Below are positions 36,526-58,949 of a stretch of DNA of 64,000 nucleotides, in pieces. Source of the DNA: an uncultured Acidobacteriota bacterium (GTDB taxonomy: Bacteria; Acidobacteriota; Thermoanaerobaculia; UBA5066). The notes beneath the pieces are model-generated. The model had not been told where the DNA came from and did no database searches. It saw only the letters and a program-made list of their open reading frames with translations. The translations under genes and the position numbers were made by a program. Within the stretch, counting starts at the first letter, position 1, and every line of letters begins with the position of its first letter. The stretch covers positions 259,539-323,538 of the forward strand of contig CAWCSP010000005.1 in NCBI GenBank assembly GCA_963798215.1. Reading direction: 5' to 3'.

Positions 36526-36771
36526 ATGAAAAGGAAACTCGTCCAGGCCGGCAATTCACTCGCCGTCACGCTCCCCGCCGAGGTCGTCCACGCCTTCGGC
36601 CTGGAAAAAGGCCAGGAGGTGGACGTCACCGTTCACCCCGTCAGTGGCGCGGTGACCGTGCGCGCCGGAGCGGCACACTACGAGAACGGAGAGGTCACGC
36701 CCCGGTTCCGCCGGAAGGTCGCCTCACTCCTGAAGACGCGCGCCGGGGTTTACCGGGCCCTCGCGAAGTGA
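36526..36771 (+). CDS. AbrB/MazE-fold antitoxin (Phd-like partner of Doc)
   Basis: KLVQAGNSLAVTLPAEVVHAFGLEKGQEVDV swapped-hairpin motif. 4-nt overlap with the doc gene. Confidence 0.8.
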   Translation: MKRKLVQAGNSLAVTLPAEVVHAFGLEKGQEVDVTVHPVSGAVTVRAGAAHYENGEVTPRFRRKVASLLKTRAGVYRALAK

Positions 36772-37160: not shown

Positions 37161-37196
37161 CGTCCGCGCGCCCGGCGGCGCCGGCCATCCTTCCGT

Positions 37197-37857
37197 ATGA
37201 TGGCCTCCGTGTCGTACGTCGAGAAGAACCTCGCCGCGGGAGAAGAGATCCTCCTGCAGGCCGCGCTACCACTGGGTGAGGTTCGTGCCCGGCGCGTCGG
37301 TCGCCGTGCTCGGCGTCGTCCTGGCGGCGGCGTGCGCCCTGCTCGTCCCGGCCGAAGGCACGGAGCCCGCCCTGAGATCCGGGCTAATGCTCGTCGCCGG
37401 CGCCCTCGTCCTTGCCGGCATTCTCGCCATGGCGTGGCGCTGGCTCGTCGACTCCTTCGACGAGTTCGCCATCACGACCTTCCGCGTCATCCGCAAGAGC
37501 GGGTTCGTGACGCGCGACGTGCGCCAGATCCCGCTCGAGAAGGTGCAGGACGTCAACGTCCGCTCGACGCTCGGCGGCCGCTGGCTCTCGTACGGTGACG
37601 TCGAGCTGCAGGGCGCCGGCAGCGACAGCACGGTCGTCTTCCCGCGCATCCTCCACCCCGAGGAGTTCCGCAACGTCCTGATCACGCACACCCGCCCCGG
37701 CGGGAACGACGGCCTTGGCGGCCGCAGCGCGGCCGCTGCGCCGACGCGCGCCTCGGTCGAGGAGCGGCTGAAGGAAGCCGAGCGCCTCCACAAGGCGGGC
37801 GTCCTCTCCGACGCGGAATACCAGGAAAAGCGCCAGGCTCTGATCAAGGAGCTTTGA
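37197..37857 (+). pseudogene. Membrane bPH_2 (YdbT-like) domain protein with C-terminal SHOCT, frame broken once
   Basis: MMASVSYVEKNLAAGEEILLQA (frame 0) continues as RYHWVRFVPGA... in frame +1 at about 37259-37264. Then two TM segments, a PH-like core FRVIRKSGFVTRDVRQIPLEKVQDV, and SHOCT (GVLSDAEYQEKRQALI). Confidence 0.7.
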
Positions 37858-37889
37858 GGCGGACGTTCCCACGCGGGAACCGACGCTCC

Positions 37890-37908
37890 CCGGACATCCC
37901 CTGTCCGG
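37890..37908. promoter_or_regulatory. Perfect inverted repeat CCGGACA-N5-TGTCCGG upstream of the WYL regulator
   Basis: Read directly from the sequence. 118 nt upstream of the WYL gene start, in a 168-nt intergenic region. Confidence 0.35.
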
Positions 37909-37986
37909 GCATCGCCCCGACCTTTCCAGCACGGCGCGTAACGCCACTTTTCGTCTAATGCATTTGCATAAACGCTGACACTTCTC

Positions 37987-38007
37987 GGACACGCCCTGTC
38001 CGTGTCC
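37987..38007. promoter_or_regulatory. Perfect inverted repeat GGACACG-N7-CGTGTCC (candidate operator)
   Basis: Lies 19 nt upstream of the WYL gene start. An extra GTGTCC half-site follows at 38008-38013. Shares the GGACA/TGTCC core with the 37890 repeat. Confidence 0.4.
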
Positions 38008-38025
38008 GTGTCCTAACTGATGTAA

Positions 38026-39048
38026 ATGCCCGATAACGCGCTGGTAGGGGAATTGCAATCGTCCGATGACCTCATGCCCTTCAACGACCGGCCGTACTTC
38101 CGTAGGCTGCTGGACTTCGACGACCTCGTGCGTCGGGGGCGACCCGTCACGTGCGAGTCGCTGGCCGCGCGCTGGGAGACGTCCGGCAAGACCGTCCAGC
38201 GCTTCGTCGACCAGATCCGCACGGACTTTCAAGCCCCGGTCGTCTTCGACCGCAAGAAGCACTCCTTCGTCTACGAGGACCCCGACTGGCGCTTCCCGTT
38301 CCTCGACGTCTCCGGCGCCGACCTCTTCGCCATCGGCGTCGCAATGAAGGTCTTCCAGATCTACGAGGGCACGCCCGTCCTCAAGGACCTCAAGTCCGCG
38401 TTCGACCGCATCGCCCGCATGCTGCCGGAGTCGGTCCGCATCCAGCCGTCGTCGCTCGTCGAGAAGCTCTGGGTCCACCCGCAGCCCGTGCGCGCCATCG
38501 AGAAGGACGTCTGGGCCGCCGTGGCGAACGCTCTCAGGGAAAAGACGCAGCTCGACATCGACTACCGGAAGCCCACGGGCGACGCCTCGCGCCGCCTCGT
38601 CGAGCCGCTCGTCCTCGTCCACATGAACTGGGACTGGTTCCTCGCCGCGCGCGACCCCGACGACGGCCTCACGAAGACCTTCTACCTCGCCCGCATCAAG
38701 GGCGCGAAGAACACGAACTTCCACTTCACGCCGCCGAAGGACTTCGACGCCGCGAAGCACTTCGGCGACTCCATCGGCCTCTACGTCGGCGGCAAGCCCT
38801 TCCGCTTCAAGGTCAGGGTCGCCAAGGAGATCGCCCCCTGGATCACCGAGGTGCGCTGGCACCCCGCGCAGAAGCTCGAGGCCCTGAAGAACGGCGACGT
38901 CGTCCTCGACCTCCCGGCCGGCTCCCTCATCGAAGCCAAGCGCTTCGTGCTGTCGCTGGGGAGGTTCGGGAAGGCGCTGGGGCCGAAGGAGCTGGTGGGG
39001 GAGATGCGGGCGGAGATTCAGGCGATGCGGAAGGACTACGGGGCGTGA
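38026..39048 (+). CDS. HTH-WYL-WCX transcriptional regulator (BrxR/CapW-like)
   Basis: N-terminal wHTH (VTCESLAARWETSGKTVQRFVDQIR). WYL domain (LDIDYRKP...LVEPLVLVHMNWDWFLAARD...KTFYLARI). C-terminal extension. Confidence 0.85.
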   Translation: MPDNALVGELQSSDDLMPFNDRPYFRRLLDFDDLVRRGRPVTCESLAARWETSGKTVQRFVDQIRTDFQAPVVFDRKKHSFVYEDPDWRFPFLDVSGADLFAIGVAMKVFQIYEGTPVLKDLKSAFDRIARMLPESVRIQPSSLVEKLWVHPQPVRAIEKDVWAAVANALREKTQLDIDYRKPTGDASRRLVEPLVLVHMNWDWFLAARDPDDGLTKTFYLARIKGAKNTNFHFTPPKDFDAAKHFGDSIGLYVGGKPFRFKVRVAKEIAPWITEVRWHPAQKLEALKNGDVVLDLPAGSLIEAKRFVLSLGRFGKALGPKELVGEMRAEIQAMRKDYGA

Positions 39049-39105
39049 TGGCCTTCCGCGCGGCCCACTTTTTGACCCTGCCGGCGTTCCGGCCTACGAT
39101 TCGGC

Positions 39106-39315
39106 GTGATGAGCGAAGTGATCTTCCTCGTAGAAGACGCGCCGGAAGGCGGCTACACGGCCAGAGCCGTGGGAGCGCCGATCTTCACGCAGGCGCGAGA
39201 CCTCGATGAGCTTCAGGAGCGCGTGCGAGACGCGGTTCGCTGCCACTACGACGAGGGCTCTGCTCCGAAGCTCATCCGGCTGCACTTCGTCAAAGACGTC
39301 GTCATCGCTGCATGA
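39106..39315 (+). CDS. HicB-like antitoxin (N-terminal domain only)
   Basis: VIFLVEDAPEGGYTARAVGAPIFTQARDLDELQERVRDAV. 4-nt overlap with the hicA-like gene. Confidence 0.6.
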   Translation: MMSEVIFLVEDAPEGGYTARAVGAPIFTQARDLDELQERVRDAVRCHYDEGSAPKLIRLHFVKDVVIAA

Positions 39316-39554
39316 AGCTGCCGCGGGACCTGTCTGGTCTCGATCTGGCCAAGGCTCTCTCGCGAGTGGGCTACCGGGTCTCGCGTCAGACGGGAAGTCA
39401 CTTGAGGCTGACAAGCGACGGTCCGCCTCAGCACCACGTGACGATTCCCGCGCACGACCCGCTGAAGATCGGGACGCTCTCTGCGGTTCTCGCCGAAATC
39501 GCCGCGCAGCTGAAGACCAGCCGCGAGGAGTTGGCGACGAGACTCTTCTCCTAG
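39312..39554 (+). CDS. hicA: HicA-family mRNA interferase toxin
   Basis: LAKALSRVGYRVSRQTGSHLRL...HVTIPAHDPLKIGTLSAVL (GSH...P.H..l..GTL pattern). Confidence 0.65.
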   Translation: MKLPRDLSGLDLAKALSRVGYRVSRQTGSHLRLTSDGPPQHHVTIPAHDPLKIGTLSAVLAEIAAQLKTSREELATRLFS

Positions 39555-39627
39555 ACGCTCGACGCAGCCGCCTCACCCTCGTCACCACCGGGTTCACGGG
39601 TGAACGAGTCTTCGAGATAATGGCCTC

Positions 39628-39846
39628 GTGGAAGCCGTTCTCGACTGGAAAGAGAGGGTCGTGTTCGATCCTGACGTGTGTCATGGCCAAGCCTGCATCA
39701 AGGGCAGCCGTGTGCTCGTCTCAGTCGTTCTCGACAGCCTCGCCTCAGGCAAGGCAGAAGACGCGATCGCGCGCGACTTTCAGATTTCCCGAGAGGACGT
39801 GCGTGCGGCGCTTCTCTACGCGGGGTATCGCCTCACGCGACGCTGA
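39628..39846 (+). CDS. DUF433 domain protein (antitoxin-like)
   Basis: DPDVCHGQACIKGSRVLVSVVLDSLASG...EDAIARDFQISREDVRAAL. Confidence 0.75.
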   Translation: MEAVLDWKERVVFDPDVCHGQACIKGSRVLVSVVLDSLASGKAEDAIARDFQISREDVRAALLYAGYRLTRR

Positions 39847-40081
39847 ACGCGTCTCGGTACGCGTACAGGGCCTCGGGCGCGATGTCCGCCCCGTTCGGCC
39901 ACGACACGGTCCAGCCGTCGACGATGAACTGCTTGAAGTAATCCACGTCCTTGAGGGGCTCGAAAACCGGTCCCTTGAGCCACTGGGCGAAATCGATCGT
40001 CTTCTCGGTGCCGTCAGCGAACCTCACCTCGAGCCGGTAGTCGGCAAGGTGGCGGGCGGCGGTCACGACGGGAGTGGCCAT
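39833..40081 (-). CDS. DUF2442 domain protein
   Basis: YRLEVRFADGTEKTIDF...WPNGADIAPEALY. Confidence 0.75.
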   Translation of the reverse strand: MATPVVTAARHLADYRLEVRFADGTEKTIDFAQWLKGPVFEPLKDVDYFKQFIVDGWTVSWPNGADIAPEALYAYRDAFSVA

Positions 40082-40090
40082 GCGCGAATT

Positions 40091-40351
40091 CTACCGAAGA
40101 GGTTCGATGTAGTTCATTGGAAGGCCCTGCTCGGACCGCCGCCAGTCCTCCTGAAGCTCCCGGACGTGGAGCCCCGCCCATTCCCTGATGAGCCTCAGAG
40201 CCACGCGCGACCGCATCTCGCCGGCAATGAGATTTCCGGCAAAGTCGAACGACCCGCGCTCGCCCTGGTATTCGGCGTGGAAGTGCGGCGGGCCGTGGTC
40301 GCTGTAGAACATGCGGACCAGGATTCCGAAGAACGAAGAAATCGTCGGCAC
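40091..40351 (-). CDS. DUF4160 domain protein
   Basis: FGILVRMFYSDHGPPHFHAEYQGE. Forms the common DUF4160-DUF2442 pair with the downstream gene. Confidence 0.78.
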   Translation of the reverse strand: MPTISSFFGILVRMFYSDHGPPHFHAEYQGERGSFDFAGNLIAGEMRSRVALRLIREWAGLHVRELQEDWRRSEQGLPMNYIEPLR

Positions 40352-40440
40352 GGGTCAAGTCTAGGCGGCGCCGAGAACGTCTTCCAGACTTACCTCGGCC
40401 CTTTGATCCACGCCGCGTCCCAGCTTACGATCGTCTCGAA

Positions 40441-40608
40441 ATGGCAAGGCAAGTGCGCCGGTTCGACGTCGTCATCGAAAAAGACAGCGACGGCTATCTC
40501 GTTGCGTGGGTGCCGGCTCTCCCCGGCTGCCACACGCAGGCGCGATCTCACGACGAGCTCACGAAGCGCATTCGCGAGGCGATCGAGCTGTGCCTCGAGG
40601 TCGTCTGA
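40441..40608 (+). CDS. HicB/UPF0150-family antitoxin-like miniprotein (55 aa; below the ORF-track cutoff)
   Basis: Own translation: MARQVRRFDVVIEKDSDGYLVAWVPALPGCHTQARSHDELTKRIREAIELCLEVV. Confidence 0.6.
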   Translation: MARQVRRFDVVIEKDSDGYLVAWVPALPGCHTQARSHDELTKRIREAIELCLEVV

Positions 40609-40665
40609 ACGGTCGATAGCGTCTAGCCACGTGACCAGGTGTCGCCGAGAAGAGGCGGCCGCCTG

Positions 40666-43600
40666 ATGCACCTCTCCTCCGTCCCCCTCACCCTCGCCGC
40701 CACCGACCTCGGCCGCTTCCTCGCGTGCCGGCACCTCACCGGCCTCGACGTCGACGTCGCCTACGGCCGCCGGGCGAAGCCGCCGAAGTACCCCGACCCC
40801 TTCCTCGACCTCCTCATCAACCGCGGCCTCGCCCACGAGAAGGACTACCTCGGGAAGATCGAGAAGGCCGAGGCTCGGCCGTCCTCGACCTCACCGACAT
40901 TCCACGACGCCGACGCCGTCGAACGCACCCTCGAAGCCATGAAGGCCGGACAGCCCGCCATCGCGCAGGGCGCGCTCGCGGCGCGACGGCTGGTACGGCC
41001 GGCCCGACTTCCTCCAGAAGGTCGCAAAGCCCAGCTCCCTCGGCCCCTTCTCCTACGAAGCCATCGACACGAAGCTCTCCCGCGAGACGCGCGGCGCCAC
41101 GATCCTCCAGCTGTCGCTTCTACTCGGACCTGCTCGGCGCCGTGCAGGGCGTCCCGCCCGAGATCTTCCACGTCGTCACCCCGCTTCGCGACGGAGCAGT
41201 ACCGCGTCGCCGACTTCGCCGCCTACTACCGCCTCGTCAAGCGGCGCCTCGTGGAAGCGGCCGGGGGCGACATCGCCGCCCTCCTCGCCGCCAACTACCC
41301 CGAGCCCGTCGACTACTGCGACGTCTGCCGCTGGTGCAAGCCGTGCGACAAGCGCCGTCACGCCGACGACCACCTCTCCCTCGTCGCCGGCATCACGCGC
41401 CTCAACCGGCGCGAGTTCGAAGTCGAACGACGTCAAGACGCTCGAGCGCCTCGGCGACCTCGTCCTCCCCATCCCGTTCAAGCCGGCCAAGGGCTCGAAG
41501 GAGTCGCTCGAGAAGGCGCAGGGCCAGGCCCGCGTCCAGCTCGCGGGGCGCCGCGCCCACGCGCCCATCCACGAGCTGCTGCCCGTCGAAGACGGGCCGC
41601 GGCCTCGCGCGCCTGCCCGAGCCCTCGCCCGGCGACGTCTTCCTCGACCTCGAAGGCGACCACTTCGCCGAGGAAGGCCCGCGCGAGTACCTCTTCGGGA
41701 TGACGATCCTCGAAGGCCCCGGCAAGACGCGCCACGTCTCGAAGCTGGGCCGTCGACGCGGCGCCGACGAGAAAGCGCGTCTTCGAAGAAATCCTCGACG
41801 AAATCTCCCAGCTCTGGAAAGCCAACCCAGGGCTCCACGTCTACCACTACGCGCCCTACGAGCCCACCGCGTTCAAGAGGCTCATGGGCCGGCACGCCAC
41901 GCGCGCCCGCGAGCTCGACCGCATGCTGCGCGCCGAGCTGTTCGTCGACCTCCTGGCCGTCGTCAAGCAGGGCCTCAGGGCCAGCGTCGAGTCGTACTCC
42001 ATCAAGAAGCTCGAGGAGTTCTACGGCTTCACGCGCGAGGCCGACCTGCGCGACGCGGGCGCCGCCCGCCGGGCCGTCGAGTTCTCTCTCCAGACGGGCG
42101 ACCTCACCGTCCTCACCCCCGAGGTCAAACGCCTCGTCGCCCTCTACAACGAGGAAGACTGCGTCTCGGCCCTGCGCCTGCGCGACTGGCTCGAAACCCT
42201 GCGGCCCGACATTCCCCGGCCGCCGCGCAAGGACGGCGACGAGAGCGAGCAGCAGGAGCAGCGCAGCAAGGACGTCCAGGACGCGATGGACGCGCTCCTG
42301 AAGGGCGTTCCCGACGAGAAGACCCAGCGCACGAAAGAGCAGCACGCCCGCTGGCTTCTCGCCCACATGCTCGAGTTCCACCGCCGCGAAGACAAGGTCA
42401 CGTGGTGGGAGTTCTACCGGCTGCGCGACCTCACCGACGAAGACGACCTCCTCGACGAGCGCAAGGTGATCGCGGGAATGAGATTCCTGAAAAGGGTCGG
42501 AGGCACGAAGAAGTGCCCGATCGACCGATACACGTTTCCTTCGCAGGACATCGACGCCCGCGAAGACGACACGCTGAAGACCAGCGACGAAGGAACCCTC
42601 GGGCATATCGAAGCCATCGACCGCGACAAGCGCACCGTCGACATCAAGAAAACGCAGAAGAAGGCCGACGAGCACCCTTCGTGGGCATTCGTCCATTCCT
42701 ACATCTCCTCGAAGGAAATCGTCGCCTCCCTCATGAGCCTCGCCGCCGACATCGCGAAGAACGGCTTCACCCCGAAGTCCGCCGCCCGCGACCTCCTCCT
42801 CGGCAATCCCCCGCGCCTGAAGAAGGGCGCGTTCGGGCCGACGAAGGGCGAAGACCCGGTCGACTTCGCCAAGCGCACCGTCCTCTCCCTCGACCGCTCG
42901 CTCCTCGCCATCCAGGGCCCGCCCGGAGCGGGGAAGACGTACACCGGCGCGCGGATGATCGTCGCCTGCGTCGACGCGGGCCTCAAGGTCGGCATCACCG
43001 CCGTCAGCCACAAGGTCATCCGCAACCTCCTCGACGCCGTCCTCGAAGCCGCCCGCGAGATGAAGGTCTCCGTCCCCTGCGTCCAGAAGATCAAGACCGG
43101 CGCCGAGAAGTCCGACCCGCCCATCCCCGGCATCGTCGAAGTCACCGACAACGCCGGCGTCCTCGCCGCGCTCGACGACGGCTCCGCGCAGGTCGGCGCC
43201 GGCACGGCCTGGATGTGGTCGCGCGACGAGTACGCCGGCGCCGTCGACGTCCTCTTCGTGGACGAGGCCGGCCAGGCCTCCCTCGCCAACGTCCTCGCCA
43301 TGGCCCAGGCCGCGAAAAGCGTCGTCCTCCTCGGCGACCCGCAGCAGCTCGAGCAGCCGCAGCGCGGCACGCACCCCGAAGGCGTCGACGCCTCGGCCCT
43401 CGAGCACCTCCTCGCCGGCAGCAAGACGATGCCGAACGACCGCGGCATCTTCCTCGACAAGACGTGGCGCCTCCCGCCCGCCATCTGCGCCTTCACGTCC
43501 GAGCTGTTCTACGAAGGCCGCCTCGAATCGCGCCCCGAGCAGGAGCAGCAGAAGCTCTCCGGCGCGCCGCCCTACGAGGGCGCGGGGCTGTGGTTCGTGC

Positions 43601-44082
43601 CCGTCGAGCACGACGGCAACACGAACTCTTCCGACGAGGAAGTGAAGGCCGTCGAGGCCATCGTCGACACGCTCCTCAAGAAGGGCAGCCGCTGGACGAA
43701 CCAGAAGGGCGAGACGAAGCAGGTCACGCCCGACGACATCCTCGTCGTCGCCCCCTTCAACGCGCAGGTCAACCGCCTGCAGGACGCGCTCGACTCGAAG
43801 GGCATCCGCGTCGGCACGGTGGACAGGTTCCAGGGGCAGGAAGGCGCCATCGTCATCTACTCGATGGCCACGTCACGGCCCGAGGACGCGCCGCGAGGGA
43901 TGGAATTCCTCTACGATCTCAACCGCTTGAACGTCGCGACGTCGAGGGCCCGCTGCGCGTGCATTCTCGTGGCCTCGCCGCGCCTGCTCGAGCCCGACTG
44001 CAAGACGCCGAGGCAGATGCGGCTGGCGAATGCGATGTGCAGATATGCAGAGCTTTTCAGAAACGGTACTGGCGCACACTGA
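40666..44082 (+). pseudogene. RecB-like (TM0106-type) nuclease / RNase H-like / SF1 DNA2-type helicase fusion; frame broken about 6 times in the first 1.1 kb
   Basis: Stitched protein: LAATDLGRFLACRHL..., GWYGRPDFLQKV...YEAIDTKLS (PD-(D/E)XK), CDVCRWCKPC, DLEGDHF...YHYAPYEPTAFKRL. Intact helicase from 41884: GPPGAGKTY, FVDEAGQ, GDPQQL, VDRFQGQE, LNVATSRAR. Each frame step is +1, near 40983, 41119, 41187, 41427, 41594 and 41744. Confidence 0.8.
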
Positions 44083-44100
44083 AATCAAGAAGGAGTAAAC

Positions 44101-44274
44101 ATGCTCGACTTCATCTGTCATGGTTGCAACCAGAAACGTCCGATGACCCAGGTCCGCGAGTGCCCCACCTGCCACAGGGTTCTCTGCGATTCCTGTCGCC
44201 GTGGAGTGACGACCTGCAAGGACTCGGACAAGGGTACGGCCGGGTGCAGCGGTCAGCTGCAACAGAAGCGCTGA
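44101..44274 (+). CDS. Zinc-ribbon miniprotein (57 aa; below the ORF-track cutoff)
   Basis: Own translation: MLDFICHGCNQKRPMTQVRECPTCHRVLCDSCRRGVTTCKDSDKGTAGCSGQLQQKR. AGGAG lies 5 nt upstream. First gene after the GC drop. Confidence 0.5.
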   Translation: MLDFICHGCNQKRPMTQVRECPTCHRVLCDSCRRGVTTCKDSDKGTAGCSGQLQQKR

Positions 44275-44279
44275 GAATT

Positions 44280-44366
44280 CGCTTGAACGTCGCGATGTCG
44301 ATGGCTTCTTTTGCATCGTTTCTGTGGTCGCGCCGCACCTCCTTTCCTTCTGGAGATTGCAATGAC
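44280..44366 (+). repeat. Decayed second copy of the helicase 3' end (motif VI region)
   Basis: CGCTTGAACGTCGCGAtGTCGAtGGC... aligns with 43924-44010 at an offset of 356 nt: first 26 nt 24/26, roughly 75% over the first ~65 nt, weaker beyond that, with indels. Translates RLNVAMSMASFASFLW..DCN versus RLNVATSRARCACILV..DCK. Confidence 0.65.
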
Positions 44367-49728: not shown

Positions 49729-49792
49729 AGGCCGGCTCTCGCTTCAACGGCGCTGAGCGTGGAGGTGCTGGACCGCTGGGCGACCCGAGGCT

Positions 49793-50226
49793 TCAGTAGA
49801 AAGGGCGGCGGCGCGTGGTCGAACGGATGCCACGGAGCACCGTCTCCACCGCTTCAGAGGCTCGCGTTTCGCACTCCCAGATCACGCGAACGGACCAGCC
49901 GGCGCGGCGGAGAGCGGCCGCCTTCCGTCGATCGCGCGCGGCGGTTTCGGCCCGCTTCTTCGACCAGAACTCCGGATTTGTTGCGGGTACGACGCGCCCG
50001 AATCGGCATGAATGAAGGTGCCAGAAGCAGCCGTCGACGAAGACGGCTGTCTTCAGTTTTGGGAAGACGAGGTCAGGTCGGCCGGGGAGCGATTTCCGGT
50101 GAAGTCGGAAGCGCATGCCGAGCCTATGGGCGATGCGGCGGACGATGAGTTTGCGGGTGTCGTGTCGCGGTCGCGGACGGCCTGCATGTTTCGCCGGCGC
50201 TGAGCCGGCGTCAGGACGTCGGTCAC
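49793..50226 (-). pseudogene. vsr: Very-short-patch repair endonuclease, one frame break
   Basis: TPAQRRRNMQAVRDRDTTP / KLIVRRIAHRLGMRFRLHRKSLPGRPDLVFP...FVDGCFWH...VIWECE. Break near 50150-50157. GTG start overlaps the endonuclease stop (GTGA). Confidence 0.8.
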
Positions 50227-51410
50227 GTCAAGAGCGGCCGCACGTGTGCGAGAAAGCCTTCGACACTCGTCAGGGAAGGCCGGTCGCGCAGGTGGAATTC
50301 CTTATGGAGACCCCTGGGAACGATGAGCTCGAGATTGGCGTCCTTCATCGCGGCCAGCTGTGCTGAAGAAATGCCACGCTGTAGCGTGAAGAGATGTTTC
50401 CTCGTAACGCGCCGTCCTTCGTGAAGGACCTGCCTCCATCTGTCGCGGCAGGTCATCTTCACGGCCAGCCACCGTGAGCTTCTCGACGGGAAAAGAGGGA
50501 TCCCGATACGCTTCTTCACTCGGAATGACGATGTCGGGCTCGCCCTCGATCTTCCTGGATCGCAGCGAGTGGGGAATTCCAGCGTCCTTGAGAATCTGGC
50601 TCACGTGATTTTCGAGCGAGCGACCGGCCCGCGACTTACGGCGGTTCGTAATGCTGCGGGCGGTCGTCAGGAAGTCGTCGATGTCGCGGAAGACACGGGC
50701 TATTTCGCGCTGACAGATCCGGCGCTCGACGAGCTGGAAGAGTCGGTATTCGCCTTCGACGAACCTGACGAGCTGCTCGTCAACGTCTGCGCGCCGGAAG
50801 TGCTTTGAAGCATTCGAGAAGCGCCGCGCGCGCCGCCTGCGAGAAGGCTTCGACCGGCGGGAACGTTTTGAGCGGCGAGGCAAACTCCAAAAACTTGCGC
50901 TCCACGCACTCACTCTCGGTTTCGGCCTTGGCAGCGCCCTTCTCGAAGATCGCCCACGCGTGAAGAAGTGAAACGCCGAGGACGCTCTGTACCTCCTCGA
51001 TGTCTTCATCCGTGTCCAGTACGAAGGCGCTGAACTCATCACGGGAATGGGGAACGATGATGAGCAGATTTCCCACCTGCTCGTCGACGAGAAACGGGAA
51101 GTCACGTCCGAACCTGGTCAGCCGGTACTCGCTGCGTGACTTCTCTCCATACCAAGTGACGCACGAATCAGTGATACGGCCGTCCTGCCAGCGAATCTTC
51201 AGAAAGTGCTTGTCCTTCCGGCCCTTCACGGGCGCGAACGGTGCGAACATCCTCCACGCTGATTTCGGGAGGTAGAACCCCGCCTGATGGCTGTCGGCGG
51301 CCTGATTCTTCGTCGCGCAGTCCGACGTCATTCGCCGAGATCACTTTGAGAAGAGCGTTTTCGTGCTCGAGGGCCTCTGCGATCGCTTCCTCGCAGGCAG
51401 GCGAGGCCAT
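50223..51410 (-). pseudogene. EcoRII-like type IIE restriction endonuclease, frame broken about 3 times
   Basis: EcoRII-N features: KVISANDVG..TKNQAADSHQAGFYLPK, SEYRLTRFG. EcoRII-C features: TNRRKSRAGRSLENHV, EPDIVIPS, KMTCRDRWRQVLHEG, KHLFTLQRGIS. Breaks near 51322, 50793 and 50470. Confidence 0.8.
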
Positions 51411-51414
51411 TTTG

Positions 51415-52616
51415 TCAGGCTCTCTTACGCCCGTACTCAGCGACGGGTGACTTCAGGAGGCAGTGCTTTTCCATTTGCCAGGCGAACGTCCGAAGGACCT
51501 CCCGGCCGACGGCCTCGACGACAGGAGGCACGACCGCGTTTCCGAACTGCCGATAGGCCCTGGTGTCCGACGACGATCGGATACTCGTCCGGGGAAGCCC
51601 ATCAGACGTGCGCACTCGCGCGGCGTCAGCCGGCGCGGCGACTGACGCTTCCCTTGCGGAATGAGGATTTCGGAGCCGTCTTTGTAGTAACGAGCACTAA
51701 GCGTGCGCGTGACGCCGCCGGGATCCGCGATTCCCAAAGCCGAAGCCGTTTCCCTTTTCTTTGTGGCGTCGCGCGTATTCCTGCAGGTAGGCCCAGAGAT
51801 GCTCGCTCAGCGTGTACTTGTCCGAAGGCTCTTTCTCCAAGATGTCCTGCAGCTTCGGGCGTGGCGCCAAGGGCGCGGCTGGGAACTCGAAAGGAGGAGC
51901 GGCGCCAGAACCTCGGCGATCGAAGCAGACGATGAAGATGCGTTCTCTGTGCTGCGGCACCCAAAGGGCGGCATCGATGACAGCGGCGTGGACGACGTAA
52001 TCCAAGTCCTCGAGCGTTTCGCGAATCACTTTCCACGTGCGGCCCGAGTCATGGGAGAGAAGATTCTTCACGTTTTCGAGGAAGGCGATCGGTGGCCGTT
52101 TCGCTTCAATCAGTGTGGCGAGCGTGAAAAAGAGATTCCCCTGGTCGGCGCAGCGGAAGCCGTGCGCGCGGCCGAGGCTGTTCTTCTTGGAAACACCGGC
52201 GATCGAGAACGGCTGGCAGGGAAAACCGGCCGCCATGATGTCGTGATCGGGGATGTCCTCGGCCCGCACCTTCCGGATATCGCCGGCCGGCTCTTCCCGA
52301 ACCAGGACTTGAGCGTCTTTTGCGCGTACCGATCCCACTCCGAGGAGAAAACGCAGGTGCCGCCGAGCTTCAGGAGTGCGGTCCGAAAGCCACCAATCCC
52401 GGCAAACAGGTCGACGAACCTGAAAGGAAGGGCGCCAGGTACAGACTTCTCGACGACGGCGCTGGGGCCGGAGAGGGGAATCTGCCCGCCGTCCTGGGCC
52501 TTGCGTAGGACTGACACGACGAACTCGCGTTTCGAGACGCCATAGCGGGCAGATTCTTCACTGATCCACGAATCGACCTCCGGGGGTACGCCCCGGACTA
52601 ACATGTCCCGGCTCAT
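51415..52616 (-). pseudogene. dcm: DNA (cytosine-5) methyltransferase with about 45-aa N-terminal extension, frame broken about 3 times
   Basis: Motif [55 protein letters not shown]. Breaks at 52296-52298 (CCC), about 51733, and 51591-51594 (GGGG). Confidence 0.88.
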
Positions 52617-52742
52617 TTCTGCCTCCGGGAAAGGACGATATCAGGAGATATCAAGAATTCCCAGCGTCCCCGGGCTGCTGGCAGGAAGAAATGATGCGTC
52701 CGCGGCACCCGCGGGCTTCGGATCCCCTAGCCAGAGGCGGCT

Positions 52743-53372
52743 TCACGCCTTTGTCGCTTTCGCCGGGACGTTCTTCACCTCGTCGGCGATACGTCGCAGG
52801 CTGGCGAAAGCAACCGCCGGTGGCACGGCCTCGCGAAGCTTCAGGATTCCCGCATGGCACGTGCGAATTTTCTGCCGGGACCCGCACGGACACTTCCAGT
52901 GGCCTTTGACATCCCCGTTGGCGAGGAGCTTCATGGCACTCAGTAGCCCTTCGGGCTCACTGATTTCAGTCCGCTCTCTGTAGAAGTCGAGGATTCCATC
53001 GATCCCGTGCCGTCGCTCGCCGAATGGCCAAACCCCATGGGCCAGATAGTGAAGGTAGCCCACGAAGAAGCTGTTGAGCGGGCCCTGCAGAAAAGAAAGA
53101 ACCGTGGAGCCCGCCGGCCAGTGGCTAAGCCCCTCCTCCGGGAGAAAAAGGCAGAGCTTACCGTCGCCGTCTACATGGTTCTCGTTAAGCTGGGGCACGC
53201 GGCCGCCCACCTCCCAAGCGACCGGAAAGCTGGCCGGGTGGTCACGTGCGAGGAGGACCTCGATCTGGAACCGGTCAACGACCACCGCCCCGACGTTAAC
53301 GGGGAGGCTGCCACGCACGCGGGCGGAATCACCCCCAATGACGAAGTAGAGGTTCGGGTAGGTGGAAGCCAC
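52743..53372 (-). CDS. E2/UBC-like protein (CBASS type II-short accessory) with SEC-C-like zinc knuckle
   Basis: FPVAWEVGGRVPQLNENHVDGDGKLCLFLP matches the E2 HPN-x-G-x-C-L pattern (candidate catalytic Cys). C-terminal HWKCPCGSRQKIRTCH. Reading frame intact. Confidence 0.65.
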   Translation of the reverse strand: MASTYPNLYFVIGGDSARVRGSLPVNVGAVVVDRFQIEVLLARDHPASFPVAWEVGGRVPQLNENHVDGDGKLCLFLPEEGLSHWPAGSTVLSFLQGPLNSFFVGYLHYLAHGVWPFGERRHGIDGILDFYRERTEISEPEGLLSAMKLLANGDVKGHWKCPCGSRQKIRTCHAGILKLREAVPPAVAFASLRRIADEVKNVPAKATKA

Positions 53373-53409
53373 CGACCGCTCCTCCCGTTTGAGGAACTCC
53401 GGCTGGCGC

Positions 53410-54317
53410 TCAAACCGAGGCCGGCGCGTCCAGCGGGTTTGCTCTCACCGTGATGATGGATGGCGCCCTCTGGATCGCCTCCCGTTTCTCGACTTCCGTG
53501 GCTTCCTCGATCCGGCCGAGGGACTCCCATCCGCCGCCCTCAATCCGGGCCAGGCTGTTGCGCGCGGCCGCGGACAGGAGCGTCTTCGTCGTGTCATTTA
53601 GTGCGTCAGAGAGGTCATTCCCGTCAGGATTCGCCGGGTCCTTCACGCACAGGGCTGACGCCTATCGCGGAACTGGGTCAGCACGTGCAGGATCTGATCT
53701 GACAGGGATTCGGACTTCTTGGACAGGAAGAGGAGGTCGATCACAGCGAGCTCGAGGACGAATGTCTTCAGATTGACCGCGTTTCGAACGTTCCAGAGCT
53801 TCATCAGGCGAATCGCGGGCCGCACGCCGCTGTCCCGGATGTGCGCGATGTGGATATCGAGGTTCGTCTTCTGGCGCCCCTTCTCGGCGCAGTTTCTGTA
53901 GAGGAAGACGTTGCCATCATCGCCGTCGATGAATCGGCCCGGGACCACGTCAATGTGGAAGTCGCCCCGCGACGCCGCCTTGGACCTCAACCTCAGGGCT
54001 GAAGGCTTCCGCTCGACGAAGTACTCCTTCTCGAGGACCGCGGCCGCATTCTCGTAAATGTCTTTCAAGGTATCCCCGGCCGTGGTGTCGTCGCGGCCGA
54101 AGCAGCACGCGATATCGAGGTCGTACGACTCGCGGATCATCGTGCACTTCGCCTTCGAGCCGGCATAACGGAGGGCGGGGGGCCGGGAAGCCCTCGATGA
54201 GGAGGCGGTCCACGTCGGTCCGACGCGCCCTGAGGGCCTTCAGCTCGTCAGAGTCTTCCTTCAGGGTCTGAGCTTCGATGACGGAGTCAAGGTAGGTATT
54301 CGGGTCTTTCTCGCTCA
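53410..54317 (-). pseudogene. Compact CD-NTase/SMODS-like nucleotidyltransferase, frame broken twice
   Basis: RYAGSKAKCTMIRESYDLDIACCF (GS...DxD), third acidic residue in DFHIDVVP, KDPANPDGNDLS. Breaks in the G6 run 54177-54182 and near 53655. ATG overlaps the cap5 stop (ATGA). Confidence 0.7.
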
Positions 54318-55531
54318 TAGGGATCCTTTGGTTACGGTGATGGTGGGGGGGTACCCCTGGGCACGACGGAAGTCGTAGACGAGGAGCGGGGGGTGCGACG
54401 CGGAGGAGGGCTCTGCCGCACGTGACAGCGACCGGCGCTGGCACCGCGGGAAAGAGGTGGATCACCTTCAGGTCGGGGTGGTTCTGCGCGATGACGCGCA
54501 GCGCAATCTGGTATTCGCGCTCGAACTCGTCGAGGTCAGCGCGCCGACTGAGGAATTGAGGGTGCGGTGTGGCAGAGGCCAGCTTCAATTCGTACAGCGT
54601 GAAGGTCGAGTCGATCGTCACCGGGAGCGCGGTGACGCCGATTGACCCGCTTAGCGGCAGCAGGAAGGCGACGCAACCTGCGTTAGTGCCCTGGCGCAGA
54701 ACTGAAAACTTGTAGTGCGCTGGGATTCCCTTCTCACGCCACTTGCGGTTGTTTTCGGCCCCCCGATGGCGCTGGTAGAGGGACGTCGGGACCTTGTCGC
54801 TCAACTGCGAGCCGAAGTGGATGAGGACCGGGATCGAGGCGATGGCAAAGACCGAAATGTGGTCGACCTGCTGCCGAGCGAGGCGGTCGGCGTACAGCCG
54901 AGGGAGCTCCTCGTCGATCTTGCGGGTTGCAGTCGTGAGGTACGCCTCGTCCCCACATCGTGATCGTGGAGAGGTCGATGAGGAACGGGTCGTCAGACTC
55001 GGGGTAGCGAGGTGCGACCGCCTCGTGGAGCTGGCCGGGCGGAAGGCTGAATTTCTGGCCAGCTACGTTACCCCGGAGCACGACGGCCGTCGTCCGCGAG
55101 TTGGGTCTTAGGGAGGTGCCATGCTCGATCCGCTTCTCGTGCTTCGTCTTGTATGCGCGAAGGACGCCCACCGTGTACTGCTCCGGGTGGTCGTCGATGA
55201 GCTTGTGGCACTCGGGACAAAGGAGCATCAGGTTCCTGACGTCATTGACGCCCTGTGCCGCGCGCGCGATGGGGTGTTTGCCGCGCGGGCCGCCGGCACT
55301 GAAAGCCACGATGTGGGCCACCTGCGCGAAGTTCCCCTCAGTCAGCGTGAGCGGGTGGCGGAGCAGGTACTTGTTGTGCCCGTCGAACTCGCACCGGCCG
55401 CCGGCACGCACCGCGAGGGCGAGGCGTCGGAACTGGGGTATCTCGCGAACGGGGCGAACGGGGCTCGGCTTGGAGGCCCTGCGGCAATGGTGTGCGTGCG
55501 GCCGATTCTTTGCCCTGGGCCGCCCCCGCAT
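54314..55531 (-). pseudogene. cap5: HNH endonuclease-SAVED effector (Cap5-like), frame broken twice
   Basis: HNH: CEFDGHN...HIVAFSAGGPRG...NLMLLCPECHKLID. SAVED: ISVFAIASIPVLIHFGSQL and VIHLFPAVPAPVAVTCGRALL. Breaks at 54951-54954 (CCCC) and 54388-54393 (G6). Confidence 0.8.
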
Positions 55532-55632
55532 GAGTATCTCTGGTCGTCTTCGGCATGCGCCGTCTCCCGTTACAGGATATCGCTTCCGGAATAAGGATAC
55601 GCTCGGCCAGTAATCTTGTCAACGGACCTGTG

Positions 55633-55646
55633 TAGGGATATCCTTA
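55633..55646. promoter_or_regulatory. Near-palindrome TAGGGATATCCTTA in the cap5/capH divergent promoter region (candidate CapH operator)
   Basis: 12/14 symmetric around GGATATCC. Related half-sites GGATAT at 55575-55580 and GGATAC at 55595-55600. Abuts the capH Shine-Dalgarno AAGGAGG. Confidence 0.4.
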
Positions 55647-55674
55647 AGGAGGATCTTTCTATTGAGGTGCCCCC

Positions 55675-56054
55675 ATGCCGTCTGTGCCAGCCATGAATCT
55701 CGTTGAATACGTTGGTGGGCGCATCCGCGAACTGCGCGGAAACCTCTCCCAGGAAGCGCTCGCTGCCAAGCTGGAGGTCGCGACGAATACAGTTTCCCGC
55801 TGGGAGACTGGAATCTACCGGCCGAGCATCGAAGACCTCGATCGCCTCGCACGGTTCTTCAAGGTGTCGATCCTGACTTTCTTTTCCCGGATGCGGCCAG
55901 CGGCGACGACCTGCAGTTCGTTCGCCTTCGCAAGGCGGCAAGCGGTCTGAAACAGGAAGACGTCGAAGAGCTGGAGCGCTACGCCGAGTTTCGGAAGGCG
56001 CGGTATCGGCTCAGTCAAGCGAAGCGGCCGGGGCGGAAACCAAAGGCCCTGTGA
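55675..56054 (+). pseudogene. capH: XRE-family HTH regulator (CapH-like), one frame break
   Basis: IRELRGNLSQEALAAKLEVATNTVSRWETGIYRPSIEDLDRLARFFKVSI. Continues in another frame as PDAASGDDLQFVRLRKAASGLKQEDVEELERYAEF after a break near 55879-55888 (T/C runs). Confidence 0.75.
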
Positions 56055-56696
56055 GCCGGAGTGCTTATTACGAGGAGATGAAGGCGAGCGCCCGAGAGAC
56101 GCGCCGTCTGTTCGGCTTGGAGACTCCACGCGTGCGCCTCTCCGACCTCAGAAAGATCTACAAGGCGCAGAACATCAAGATCGATCTGTGGAAGCGGAAG
56201 CTCAAGGGGTTGCGTGGTGCATATTTCTGTGACGAGTCCGGAGCCAGCGTGATGATCAACGCGAAGCTCCCCCCGGAGCCGCGCATCTTCACCATGGGAC
56301 ACGAGTTGAAGCATCACCTATTCGATCGGAAGACGCGTGACTGCTTGAGTCTTTCGCCGCCGATGATCTCGTAGAAGTCGGCATAAGGTGTTTTCGGGTG
56401 AGCTCATTTTTCCGGAAGCTGACTTCTCGACGTGGTGCGGCCGGCTCGGAATCCAACCGGCTGCGTGCCGGGCCGAGGACCTCATTCGCCTCAAGCGGGA
56501 AACCCAGACGACGCTTAGCTACGCCGGCCTGGTAAAGCGCGCGACTCGGCTGGGCTTCGCCGAGGGCGACGGACTAGAGAACGTCCACTGGAAGAAACTC
56601 GAAGAGCAGATCTACGGCGAGCCCGATTGCGGAGCACATCACCGCGCACGGAAGGCGCGGGCCGCGAGAGCCCAGTTGCTACGCGGGCCGGGCTAG
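56051..56696 (+). pseudogene. capP: ImmA/IrrE-family zinc metallopeptidase (CapP-like), frame broken twice
   Basis: HExxH motif FTMGHELKHHLFD, downstream VFSGELIFPEADF. Breaks near 56350 and 56385. GTG overlaps the capH stop (GTGA). Confidence 0.75.
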
Positions 56697-57400
56697 CAGA
56701 CAGGGCTGGGAAACCTCGTCTTCCAGAGCAGGCCTTCCCAGAAACGCAGCACCCACTGTTCCTCGCCGGTGTCGCTCTGCGCCGCCCCTTTGAAGCGATA
56801 GTCGAAAACGCGCGAATAGGGGTACCGTCCTGCCGCCCCCTGCCACCAGCCGGGGAAGGCGCCGTCAATCTGCGTCACATGGCTGAGGCCCTCGAAAGCG
56901 ACGGGACTGGCTTCCGGCAAGACCGCGCCCTGCTCCAGGAGGTAAAGCCCTCGGACGATTTTCCAGCTCACGCGCCGGATGCGCTCGTCTTCATGGTTCA
57001 TTGCGACCACGGTGCCTCGGCGCCCCGAGGTAGTCGTTTCATGCTCCCATTTCATCTCCCGGAAGGCACGCCCGAAAAGCCTCTTCGTGCCTTCGTGTCC
57101 TGAGACGTTCTTTAGGAAGTCGCCGGTCAGCGCACCGCCCGCCCATGTGTTGGCGACATGAAACCGCAGGGTCGCGATGAAGTACTCCTCGTCGTCCTTA
57201 TCGGAGTTGTTGCATTGCGTGTGCGTTGGAAGCGTCCACAAGTCCGGTTTCAATTCCTCGAGAATGGACTCGGCAAAGAAGTCTCTCGGTGGGATGTGAT
57301 CAGCACTTCTTGGCTTCGTCAGCCTCTCGCCGCAGAGGTAGCAGACGCCGAGCTTCGGTCTTCTCAGTACACCGTCGACGTCAAGCTTCTTGAAAGCCAC
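56693..57400 (-). CDS. HNH-motif protein of unknown function
   Basis: CYLCGERLTKPRSADHIPPRDFF...PTHTQCNNSDKDDEEYF (CxxC...DH...HxxCN). About 170 aa of uncharacterised C-terminus. Intact. Its stop overlaps the capP stop convergently. Confidence 0.5.
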   Translation of the reverse strand: MAFKKLDVDGVLRRPKLGVCYLCGERLTKPRSADHIPPRDFFAESILEELKPDLWTLPTHTQCNNSDKDDEEYFIATLRFHVANTWAGGALTGDFLKNVSGHEGTKRLFGRAFREMKWEHETTTSGRRGTVVAMNHEDERIRRVSWKIVRGLYLLEQGAVLPEASPVAFEGLSHVTQIDGAFPGWWQGAAGRYPYSRVFDYRFKGAAQSDTGEEQWVLRFWEGLLWKTRFPSPVC

Positions 57401-57439
57401 GACGCGGATTCTCTCTCAGGCCACTCACCTCTTGCTCCC

Positions 57440-58301
57440 ATGATGGAGCTGGAACAGCTGCGGGTCTTCGTGGCCGTCGCGCAGACGCGGACGTTCGTGG
57501 AGGCCGCCGCGCGTCTGAACAAGTCACAGCCGGCCGTGACGATGACGGTGAAGGCTCTGGAGCGGGAGATGGGTGTGCCCCTCTTTGCGCGGGAGGGCCG
57601 CGGAAAGAGGCTGACGGCGGCGGGAGCGAGGCTGGCCGCGAAGGCCGCGGGCGTCCTGGAGGGCGCGCGGCGATTGAAGGAGGATGTCGCCGGAGAGCCG
57701 GAGGTGCCCCGGGGGCCCGTGCGGGTGGGGGCCGGCGAGGCCGCCATCGTCTACTTCCTGCTTCCGCTTCTTCGAAGGATTCGCGAGGCGTACCCGTCCC
57801 TGGCTCTCGAGGTGCGAAACCAGCGCGACATGGAGTCGTTCGATCAGTTGCTCGCGGGCGAGCTGGACCTGGCGGTTCGGTCCCGGGAGGCGCTGCCGCA
57901 CGGTTTGAGGTTCGAGCCGCTGTTCGCGTCGGATCGAATGCTGATCGTGCCGCGTGGTCACGAGCTGGCGGGGAAGAAGCGCCCGACGCTCAGAGACCTC
58001 GCTCGCCATGCGTTCGTGATCCCCCCGGCGGGTTCGACGTCGCGCCGCCTGATCGAGGCCGCGTTCCTGCGGGCCGGCCTGAGGCTGGAGATCGCGATGG
58101 AGGCGGGAGGCTGGGAGATCGTGAAGCGCCTGGTGCGGGCGGGGTGGGCGTGGCGGTGGGTTCCTCGCTGTGGCGATTCCGGCGGGGCATCTCTTCCCTC
58201 CGGATGTCCATGGGCTGGTGACGCGGGAGGGCACCGGCGCCTCATCCGCAACGGCCGCCGTGACGCGGGTGCTGGAGGAGGCGGGGAGGAGGGTGGGGTA
58301 G
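57440..58301 (+). pseudogene. LysR-family transcriptional regulator, frame broken twice near the 3' end
   Basis: LEQLRVFVAVAQTRTFVEAAARLNKSQPAVTMTVKALEREMGVPLF HTH plus a substrate-binding domain. Frame changes near 58142 and 58168 (G-rich). Confidence 0.8.
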
Positions 58302-58310
58302 GGGGTAAAC

Positions 58311-58901: not shown

Positions 58902-58949
58902 TCATCTTTAGCTTAGTAAAAGGCACGGCCGCGCCGGTCGTTGCCGGAC

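Follow-up and report, generated by a model that had tools for sequence, protein, structure and literature searches.

Single-base frame breaks in a strain-specific defence island of an uncultured Acidobacteriota genome are most probably consensus errors of the assembly

Introduction

Defence islands do become inactivated in nature, so a biological origin for a series of broken defence genes is not an absurd proposition. Decaying islands and pseudogene-rich genomes, such as those of Mycobacterium leprae and host-restricted Salmonella, display a mixture of nonsense mutations, deletions, IS insertions and frameshifts, along with eroded protein motifs. In bacterial mutation-accumulation data, substitutions exceed small indels by about 10:1. 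As for sequencing, the consensus errors of high-depth Nanopore data are usually homopolymer deletions. According to two reports, residual Nanopore error consists mainly of indels, and low-coverage contigs are richer in frameshifted genes (PMC8103633; PMC12007338).

The locus described here resembles both of these backgrounds in part. As in decaying islands, many adjoining non-essential genes are disrupted and core genes are intact; unlike them, the window shows 1-2 nt indels only, and its proteins are otherwise full length. As in the gene-fragmenting indel errors of long-read (Nanopore or PacBio) assemblies dealt with in those reports (PMC12007338; PMC8103633), which are worst at low coverage, single-base indels split conserved full-length genes and are private to one assembly, nonsense and structural lesions are missing, and the density of breaks rises where low depth would be expected. 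Unlike those errors, the damage is sharply regional rather than contig-wide (island, about 2 per kb; flanks, about 0), the breaks are not homopolymer-dominated, and in the GC-rich part nearly all of them are insertions.

Taken at face value, the record presents a whole defence island apparently caught mid-silencing. In this work, we present evidence that the frame breaks are instead consensus errors of the deposited assembly and not mutations in the organism, a reading to which we assign a probability of roughly 0.85; the underlying biology is an ordinary multi-system defence island, probably intact.

Materials and methods

The window, i.e., the whole stretch of 64,000 nucleotides that was analyzed, comes from a 366-kb contig of a Thermoanaerobaculia metagenome-assembled genome. 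The use of long reads for this assembly is very probable, as deduced from sister assemblies of the same ENA series, which display Flye-style 'contig_N' names and the same kind of error. Frame breaks were called by our own frameshift-aware protein-to-DNA alignment to homologues, combined with three-frame reading, and those of the nuclease-helicase gene were also viewed in a three-way nucleotide alignment with relatives L082 and L081. Additional breaks at 53445 (-1), 56632/56639 (+1/-1) and 56702 (-1) were visible only against close relatives.

Results

Flanks and boundaries of the island

No frame breaks were found in the coding sequence of the flanks by means of GC3-phase blocks (all of which terminate at stop codons), homologues and sister assemblies. 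Genes polA, dnaG, rpoD and selB (15717-17687, minus strand), among others, are full length, and both the accessory genes of the right flank and of 33.7-37.2 kb and the non-essential flank genes (toxin-antitoxin pairs, a methyltransferase and a CapK-like gene) are intact. An independent sister-sample assembly covers positions 10242-39267 (28.9 kb on the left side) with an identity of 98.5-99.9% and two indels: one in coding sequence, the additional G of the window at 37256, and one of 2 nt in intergenic sequence. Sister contig L098 aligns to 58356-64000, and the three gaps of this alignment all lie between genes. Over 34.5 kb of flank, intergenic sequence thereby shows just four small indels relative to the sister assemblies.

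Homology to the sister contigs L095 and L098 (blastn) ends at 39267 on the left and restarts at 58356 on the right, delimiting a strain-specific segment (39267-58356). In the composition profile, GC content drops here to about 0.60, from about 0.72 in the left flank. This segment, of which no close copy was found in public collections, coincides with the broken zone. At its right edge lies the C-terminal remnant of an apiosidase-like/Collagen_bind_2 gene (58311-58901, plus strand), matching only positions 258-319 of 320 of Pfam Apiosidase, whereas L098 harbors the full 569-aa gene, with homology stopping at 58356; judging from this alignment, the truncation is a real structural difference and not an indel.

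Number, nature and distribution of the breaks

About 40-46 frame breaks were identified by frameshift-aware alignment, spanning 37,256-58,170, and the chance of 40 events all falling within 21 of 64 kb is P ~1e-19. The first-pass annotation had counted about 38 breaks confined to the island, and this confinement is borne out, with none in flank coding sequence. Every island lesion is a 1-2 nt indel, with +1 and -1 events roughly equal in number. On the best alignment paths, in-frame stops occur at just two places, TGA 47809 and TAG 46001, and both vanish once another path is taken or a paired indel is allowed; no robust nonsense codon, truncation or IS element was seen in the broken island genes by homologue alignment and Pfam. 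Stitched proteins are full length compared with a homologue or Pfam model, with profile matches crossing the junctions, in agreement with the earlier statement that nonsense and large-deletion damage is almost lacking.

The breaks had previously been described as patchily distributed and in several cases located in homopolymers, and each description stands in part. Patchiness is real in 37.2-44.3 kb, and between 44.6 and 58.2 kb the breaks are spaced as in a uniform random process (largest gap of 1.44 kb, mean of about 0.38 kb). The G5 and G6 cases are genuine; nevertheless, a homopolymer of at least 4 nt is present within 20 nt of 14 of the 36 breaks examined, against a background of 27-29%, i.e., no clear enrichment, and most of the sites polarized with close relatives fall outside homopolymer runs. 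No association was found between CCWGG sites and break positions. Within 6 nt of the indels, the density of mismatches is raised about 4-fold, as expected from a locally garbled consensus.

The left part of the broken zone

The bPH_2/SHOCT membrane protein gene (37197-37857, plus strand; Pfam on the stitched protein) carries one break, the extra G at 37256 (+1). In sister contig L095, 98.5% identical, this gene is intact (219 aa), and the extra G constitutes the sole gap in the 4.6-kb alignment. The site is located 2 kb inside the region common with the sister strain, an observation that runs against an artefact. Next, a WYL-domain regulator (38026-39048, plus strand; PADLOC WYL match) displays no gaps compared with L095 or L082.

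The gene encoding a RecB-like nuclease/SF1 helicase of the TM0106 type (40666-44082, plus strand) was aligned to the intact protein P0001 (1133 aa, 86% amino acid identity), revealing seven +1 breaks, one +2 break and no stops. All 8 breaks are in the nuclease part (40861-41745), at 40861 (+2) and at 40920, 40981, 41117, 41187, 41419, 41594 and 41745 (+1), and the 2.3-kb helicase part has zero insertions. Most of the per-gene counts of the first-pass annotation agree or nearly agree with ours, except for this gene, to which six had been assigned; its view of 2.2 kb of the helicase and of the WYL gene as intact was correct, with no indels against P0001 and against L095/L082, respectively.

The Mza-like cluster

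A MutL-like GHKL ATPase, a DUF4420 protein and a Z1 ATPase are grouped together, adjoining a C5 methyltransferase and Vsr (Pfam, PADLOC). The GHKL ATPase gene (HATPase_c_3, MzaB-like; 44359-45875, plus strand; Pfam, PADLOC MzaB) has 3-4 breaks on which five homologues agree, at 44623 (+1), ~44800 (-1), ~45450 (-1) and possibly ~45750. The DUF4420 gene, of the PD-(D/E)XK type (45828-46822, plus strand; homologue alignment, Pfam), has 2-3, at ~45975-46040 (-1), at 46483 (+1, within a run of G5) and perhaps at 45873. The Z1-domain ATPase gene (MzaC-like; 46812-49728, plus strand; homologue alignment, PADLOC MzaC) is the most affected, with 7-9 breaks, seven of them agreed by seven homologues: 47091 (+1), 47422 (-1), 47730 (+1), the pair 47800 (-1)/47811 (+1), which resolves TGA 47809, 47890 (-1), ~48975 (+1), ~49243 (+1) and ~49454 (-1).

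On the minus strand, the vsr gene for a very-short-patch endonuclease (49793-50226; Pfam Vsr 2-73 of 74) has a single break at 50154 (-1). It is followed by an EcoRII-like restriction endonuclease gene (50223-51410; three-frame reading, Pfam) with three +1 breaks at ~51315, 50791 and ~50463, whose stitched protein covers EcoRII-N 9-136 of 154 and EcoRII-C 1-165 of 165, and by a Dcm-type C5 cytosine methyltransferase gene (51415-52616; DNA_methylase 1-322 of 324 on the stitched protein) with 3-4 breaks at ~52292 (-1), 51735 (+1), ~51589 (-1) and possibly 51486.

The neighbourhood of GHKL, DUF4420, Z1, vsr and dcm genes recurs among 80 genomes. The cluster resembles Mza-type systems in its MzaB and MzaC PADLOC matches, accompanied by DUF4420, Vsr, DNA_methylase and EcoRII-N/C Pfam matches, and differs in that all of its genes are frameshifted as deposited and in that the nearest Z1 relative is only 46-49% identical. 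The GHKL-DUF4420-Z1 cluster with Dcm/Vsr/EcoRII is putatively classified as Mza-like from its MzaB, MzaC and DUF4420 components.

The CBASS module and neighbouring genes

Genes for E2, CD-NTase and the SAVED-HNH effector are contiguous in one operon (52743-55531, minus strand), with a CapH/CapP pair transcribed divergently. The E2-like gene (52743-53473; PADLOC E2, 5e-45; alignment to L083) is open from 53372; a -1 deletion at 53445 removes its 5' end, and the PADLOC match begins at profile position 18. The CD-NTase, or CBASS cyclase, gene (53410-54318; PADLOC Cyclase, 7e-62; alignment to L083) is broken at 54180 (+1, in a G6 run) and 53663 (-1), in addition to 53445 at its 3' end; it shows 74% amino acid identity to L083 (218 of 293 aligned positions) with no stops, and its 165-aa fragment alone shows 81%. 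The Cap5-type HNH-SAVED effector gene (54318-55531; PADLOC Effector/SAVED_HNH, 3e-124, full length) is broken at 54958 (+1) and 54396 (+1, in a G6 run), the latter run being one base shorter in L083.

On the plus strand, the capH-like HTH regulator gene (55675-56051; weak PADLOC match, 1e-6; L083 alignment) has one break at ~55882-55886, and the capP-like metallopeptidase regulator gene (56051-56696; weak PADLOC match, 2e-7; L083 alignment) has two -1 breaks (56346, 56383) and a +1/-1 pair (56632/56639), all of them private to the window compared with L096 (94.5% nucleotide identity), L097 and L083. Both products show 75-87% amino acid identity to the L083 pair. The module resembles E2-only CBASS in that Cyclase, SAVED-HNH effector, E2, capH and capP all match PADLOC in the usual divergent layout (52.7-56.7 kb) and in that it aligns as a whole to an intact operon in L083; it differs in that each gene has at least one frameshift as deposited and in the weakness of the capH and capP matches.

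Beyond this module, a gene for a 235-aa protein (56693-57400, minus strand; relatives of 240 and 248 aa), which yielded neither a Pfam nor a PADLOC match, has lost one base (-1) at 56702, three codons ahead of its stop. This gene, labelled HNH-like in the first-pass annotation, and the E2 gene had both been considered intact, and each turned out to carry one indel. The LysR-type regulator gene (57440-58301, plus strand; three-frame reading, Pfam) has two -1 breaks at ~58143 and ~58170, and its stitched protein covers HTH_1 1-59 of 60 and LysR_substrate 3-206 of 209. Judged by these matches, the island includes a CBASS with Cap5/CapH/CapP, a putative Mza-like cluster and a WYL-linked nuclease-helicase, all of known kinds.

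Comparison with relatives

The comparison with related genomes proposed in the first-pass annotation showed intact frames there at every polarizable site, with 15 of 15 breaks private to the window contig (close relatives of 73-99% identity). These comprise 37256 against L095 at 98.5% identity, the eight nuclease-domain breaks against intact P0001/L082 and against L081, 53445 against L083, and 56346, 56383, 56632, 56639 and 56702 against L096 and L097; the other ~25-30 breaks were comparable only with distant homologues (38-49% identity). Another contig of the ENA series, L081 (ERZ25039488 contig_43058), contains nine different private frameshifts, of which its WYL gene has 4, all +1, and its nuclease-helicase gene 5; eight of the nine are insertions.

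At the three codon positions of the 235-aa gene, window-private substitutions number 4/1/14, a distribution indicative of purifying selection. The corresponding small counts are 7/6/11 for the helicase and 4/5/8 for capP, and the 22/20/19 of the nuclease patch is confounded by a 23%-divergent segment. The next-best Z1 match is 46% identical among 5.8 billion proteins, and the CD-NTase fragment and E2 form singleton clusters; an island core with no close copy anywhere points to a rare strain.

Discussion

Between the two explanations initially put forward, consensus error fits all the tests made here, whereas indel-driven silencing fits the mutation spectrum poorly. Under consensus error, the flanks, common to co-occurring strains at 98.5-99.9%, would be deeply covered; the ~19-kb island (39,267-58,356), present in one rare strain only, would be represented by few or mixed reads, and the consensus would consequently retain ~2 single-base indels per kb there. 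We infer low or heterogeneous read depth across the island, as breaks that are indel-only, private and coincident with a strain-specific segment fit such depth over a rare strain's island. Two observations oppose this reading unless further assumptions are made: the many non-homopolymer insertions require very low depth or mixed alleles, and the indel-free stretches of 2.9 kb (helicase) and 3.6 kb (WYL/toxin-antitoxin) require local depth differences.

A mixed case, in which most breaks are artefacts and those at 46483, 54180 and 54396 reflect true slippage or phase-variable switching of DUF4420, CD-NTase or Cap5, is unlikely, although the three fall exactly on the longest nearby G/C runs and the run at 54396 is shorter by one base in L083; runs of 5-6 are also classic sequencing-error sites, and other breaks in the same genes lie outside homopolymers.

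Genuine and very recent pseudogenisation, with the whole island silenced by dozens of fixed single-base indels owing to autoimmunity cost or lost phage pressure, is a somewhat poorer candidate. It would agree with breaks restricted to dispensable defence genes, with a strain-specific island that adjoins a truncated gene and is thus a dynamic locus, and with plausible slippage at the G5/G6 breaks 46483, 54180 and 54396. However, nonsense mutations, deletions and indels centred on homopolymers would be expected from it, none of which was seen, and up to 8-9 breaks per gene occur without a nonsense codon, deletion or IS element; given the 10:1 ratio, 40 neutral indels would bring ~400 substitutions and at least 12 stop codons. 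Moreover, private substitutions in the 235-aa gene still show purifying selection, no break touches the intact accessory genes of 33.7-37.2 kb or of the right flank, and L081, an unrelated contig of the ENA series, displays similar private frameshifts in conserved genes. That the indels are real and that, in a wild Thermoanaerobaculia strain, a burst of ~40 single-base indels with next to no substitutions inactivated three or four stacked defence systems (CBASS, the Mza/Dcm/EcoRII cluster and the WYL-linked nuclease-helicase), is marginally less credible still, and would imply an island-restricted, indel-specific mutational process or repeated break-and-repair. Least probable is a mutator lineage, e.g., mismatch-repair-deficient, with frameshifts arising genome-wide and selection letting them persist only in dispensable island genes: it would account for clean housekeeping genes alongside a broken island, but mismatch-repair loss yields indels almost exclusively in longer homopolymer runs, most break sites are outside runs, non-essential flank genes are intact, and the intergenic flanks hold just those four small indels.

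If consensus error is the correct reading, its recognition guards surveys of pseudogenes and of defence genes based on long-read metagenome-assembled genomes, and shows strain-specific islands to be the very places of concentration of such errors. The combination of indel-only damage, privacy against near relatives and overlap with a strain-variable segment constitutes a flag that can be raised without reads. Left uncorrected, the record would introduce dozens of false pseudogenes and gene fragments into databases, where two fragments, one of Z1 (521 aa) and one of CD-NTase (165 aa), already figure as proteins.

Reading-frame breaks in the defence island

The window belongs to a 365,937-bp contig, and its RpoD clusters with MAG proteins of Thermoanaerobaculia (Acidobacteriota). 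Its composition profile displays a GC content of ~0.72 in the left flank, 0.65-0.68 in 37-44 kb, ~0.60 in 44-58 kb and ~0.65 on the right. According to Pfam and PADLOC searches, the island (37.2-58.3 kb) harbors a bPH_2/SHOCT gene (PH-SHOCT), a WYL regulator, several small toxin-antitoxin genes, a RecB-like nuclease/SF1 helicase, a GHKL ATPase (MzaB-like), DUF4420, a Z1 ATPase (MzaC-like), Vsr, an EcoRII-like endonuclease, a Dcm methyltransferase, a CBASS operon (E2, CD-NTase and a Cap5-type HNH-SAVED effector, with capH/capP divergent), a 235-aa gene without assigned family, and a LysR regulator; these defence systems are of known kinds. Toxin-antitoxin-type small genes (HicA/HicB-like, DUF433, DUF2442, DUF4160) are densely packed in 39106-40608, the stretch that separates the WYL regulator from the nuclease-helicase. 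All of them are open, and their order is unlike that in contig_193433 of a sister-sample assembly (ENA ERZ25039489), where the homology is rearranged.

Breaks, i.e., frame-shifting indels, were counted with a purpose-written protein-to-DNA aligner permitting frame changes, using as references full-length homologues from 80 genomes, the intact JGI protein P0001 (86% identical) for the nuclease-helicase, and the intact operon of a metagenome locus (L083) for the CBASS genes. For EcoRII, LysR and PH-SHOCT, a three-frame reading was used and the stitched products were then checked against Pfam, each model being covered end to end across the junctions. A mild frameshift penalty of -10 over-fitted distant references, with up to 19 "shifts" in Z1, and therefore the reported counts come from -14 runs together with events confirmed by close relatives. 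Nucleotide alignment to L083 (73% identity) was too noisy for the exact placement of most indels.

One break each was found in PH-SHOCT, Vsr and capH; two each in CD-NTase, Cap5, capP and LysR; three in EcoRII; 2-3 in DUF4420; 3-4 each in GHKL and Dcm; 7-9 in Z1; and eight in the nuclease-helicase. Close relatives disclosed further breaks at 53445, where the CD-NTase 3' end meets the E2 5' end, at 56632/56639 (a pair in capP) and at 56702 in the 235-aa gene. With this recount and the additional events, the ~38 breaks proposed in the first-pass annotation proved correct or slightly low. Among the genes listed there as intact, WYL and the helicase part indeed are, but E2 is affected at its 5' end (53445), and the 235-aa gene, then called HNH-like, carries a break at 56702. 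The deposited sequence itself carries the breaks, and a 521-aa Z1 fragment, among other fragments, is catalogued as a protein of this contig.

Indels private to single assemblies

Every indel that can be set against a close relative is private to the window. In the nuclease domain there are seven +1 and one +2 insertions relative to both an intact nuclease-helicase relative (L082) and L081, the terminal part of a contig of 248 kb from another assembly (contig_43058, ENA ERZ25039488); six shifts, all in the +1 direction, had been reported earlier for this domain. Likewise, the insertion at 37256 is private when compared with contig_193433, five indels in capP and the 235-aa gene when compared with two Logan contigs, L096 (94.5% identity) and L097, and the deletion at 53445 when compared with L083.

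L081 contains related WYL and nuclease-helicase genes, and displays damage of its own, with nine private frameshifts in its positions 7178-12400. Four of these are +1 insertions in the WYL gene, which the window, L082 and contig_193433 have intact and which is called as two fragments in L081, and five affect the nuclease-helicase at positions unlike those of the window, the helicase being called as a 790-aa stump. Since two assemblies bear their own single-base frameshifts in genes that are intact in a third one (JGI), the private frameshifts in both point to the method rather than to the organisms.

Lesion spectrum

All lesions are indels of 1-2 nt, with about half each shifting the frame by +1 and -1, and in the GC-rich 37-44 kb part 9/9 are insertions. 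On the best alignment paths the only in-frame stops were a TGA at 47809 and a TAG at 46001, both of which vanish with a nearby shift pair or with other references, and no truncated gene was found among the island genes with counted breaks. If the island had undergone genuine recent pseudogenisation, the breaks would be true mutations, an explanation we regard as very improbable. In bacterial mutation accumulation, substitutions and small indels arise at ~10:1, and at this ratio forty neutral indels in ~6,700 codons would come with hundreds of substitutions and at least a dozen stop codons; none of the stop codons expected under neutral decay was robustly present among the island genes. Such a spectrum of lesions is unlike that of natural decay. 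Furthermore, the private substitutions of the 235-aa gene, distributed 4/1/14 by codon position, indicate that the window lineage is under purifying selection where this is cleanly measurable, the counts of the other genes being small or confounded. Self-cutting by restriction at CCWGG followed by end-joining was rejected, with this motif near 1/35 sites vs 1.7 expected.

A placement of several breaks in G/C homopolymers had also been described; runs of at least 4 nt lie within 20 nt of 14/36 breaks vs 27-29% of random positions, an enrichment that is not significant, and most sites placed exactly via close relatives are outside runs. Up to 6 nt from an indel, mismatches are ~4x as dense as in the remainder of these alignments, a clustering to which gap placement contributes and which fits a locally garbled consensus.

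The patchy distribution noted in the first-pass annotation holds for 37.2-44.3 kb, with 37.3-40.86 kb and the helicase part free of breaks, and was not sustained for 44.6-58.2 kb, where the breaks are spaced as in a uniform random process. The helicase part shares 95.8-99.3% identity with L081 over three bins, with the highest value in 42.5-43.3 kb. Locally varying support, if present, would account for the patchiness. In the nuclease domain, a codon-position test was confounded by a patch of 270 nt (40760-41030), 23% divergent from L081 as well as from L082, with differences about equally frequent at the three codon positions (22/20/19) and neighbouring sequence 95-99% identical; this patch could have arisen by allelic recombination or as a chimera in the consensus.

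Flanks, island edges and origin of the breaks

The flanks had been described as unbroken, and this is borne out. The third-codon-position GC signal in this GC-rich DNA forms long blocks, each closing at a stop codon; polA, dnaG, rpoD, selB, a metC-like gene and other flank genes match their full Pfam models; and the sister contigs agree. Over 28.9 kb, contig_193433 differs by a single coding indel, the extra G of the window at 37256 (its PH-SHOCT is an intact 219-aa ORF), and one 2-nt intergenic indel. On the right, contig_68975 of the same assembly is 98.9-99.3% identical to 58356-64000, with three gaps, all intergenic. Overlapping same-strand ORFs were considered as hidden left-flank frameshifts, and were assigned instead to distinct genes because the phase blocks end at stops and identical gene calls are made in the sister contig: Zn-ribbon/CT398, RNase H and YggS (5.6-7.6 kb), CYTH and NTP_transferase (20.0-21.2 kb), and pseudopilin and ComEA-like (21.2-23.1 kb).

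Homology to the sister strain ends at 39267 and resumes at 58356. Of an apiosidase-like/Collagen_bind_2 gene, the window retains no more than the C-terminal 196 codons (58311-58901), the full-length gene of contig_68975 encoding 569 aa (its positions 15088-16797), and the cut-off at 58356 that marks the right island edge is a real structural breakpoint. The zone of broken frames extends from 37256 to ~58170 and, its first event aside, coincides with the strain-specific segment. A scan of GTDB genomes and a search of 5.8 billion proteins retrieved no other instance of the core at 44-56 kb for comparison; matches of the Z1 fragment reached at most 49% aa identity in GTDB genomes, its next-best hit in the protein search was 46% identical, and the CD-NTase fragment and E2 formed singleton clusters.

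We favor, with a probability of about 0.85, errors of the consensus as the source of the breaks, made over an island that is strain-specific and has thin or heterogeneous coverage. The flanks, common to co-occurring strains at 98.5-99.9% identity, would have their consensus backed by the reads of all strains, and the island, unique to one strain, would have thin coverage or coverage from several diverged alleles; such coverage is suggested by its being unique both to one strain and in public data. Two reports on Nanopore metagenomes describe indels as the predominant type of remaining error, and contigs of low coverage as richer in frameshifted genes (PMC8103633; PMC12007338).

Identity to contig_193433 drops stepwise towards the island, from 99.91% (10242-27687) to 99.13% (27935-34605) and 98.5% (34687-39267), which could reflect recombination tracts beside a variable locus or a consensus from mixed strains. 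The HepT-like toxin gene at 34426-34770 (114 aa) is ~90 nt longer, in-frame, than its counterpart in the sister contig (84 aa), the difference lying at 34606-34686. At 15714-15715, intergenic and just downstream of selB, a short repeat of GC dinucleotides differs by 2 nt, which is the sole indel relative to the sister assembly within 17.4 kb of left flank. The 630-aa ORF at 5626-7518 (-), with no family match and overlapping three real (+) genes (Zn-ribbon/CT398-like, RNase H and YggS-like), is a GC-rich shadow ORF and no gene. Finally, contig_68975 carries an IS1595-family transposase (its positions 13776-14786) within ~1.5 kb of additional sequence that separates its CapK-like and apiosidase-like genes, at a place between window-equivalent positions 58906 and 58900; the window has no such transposase.
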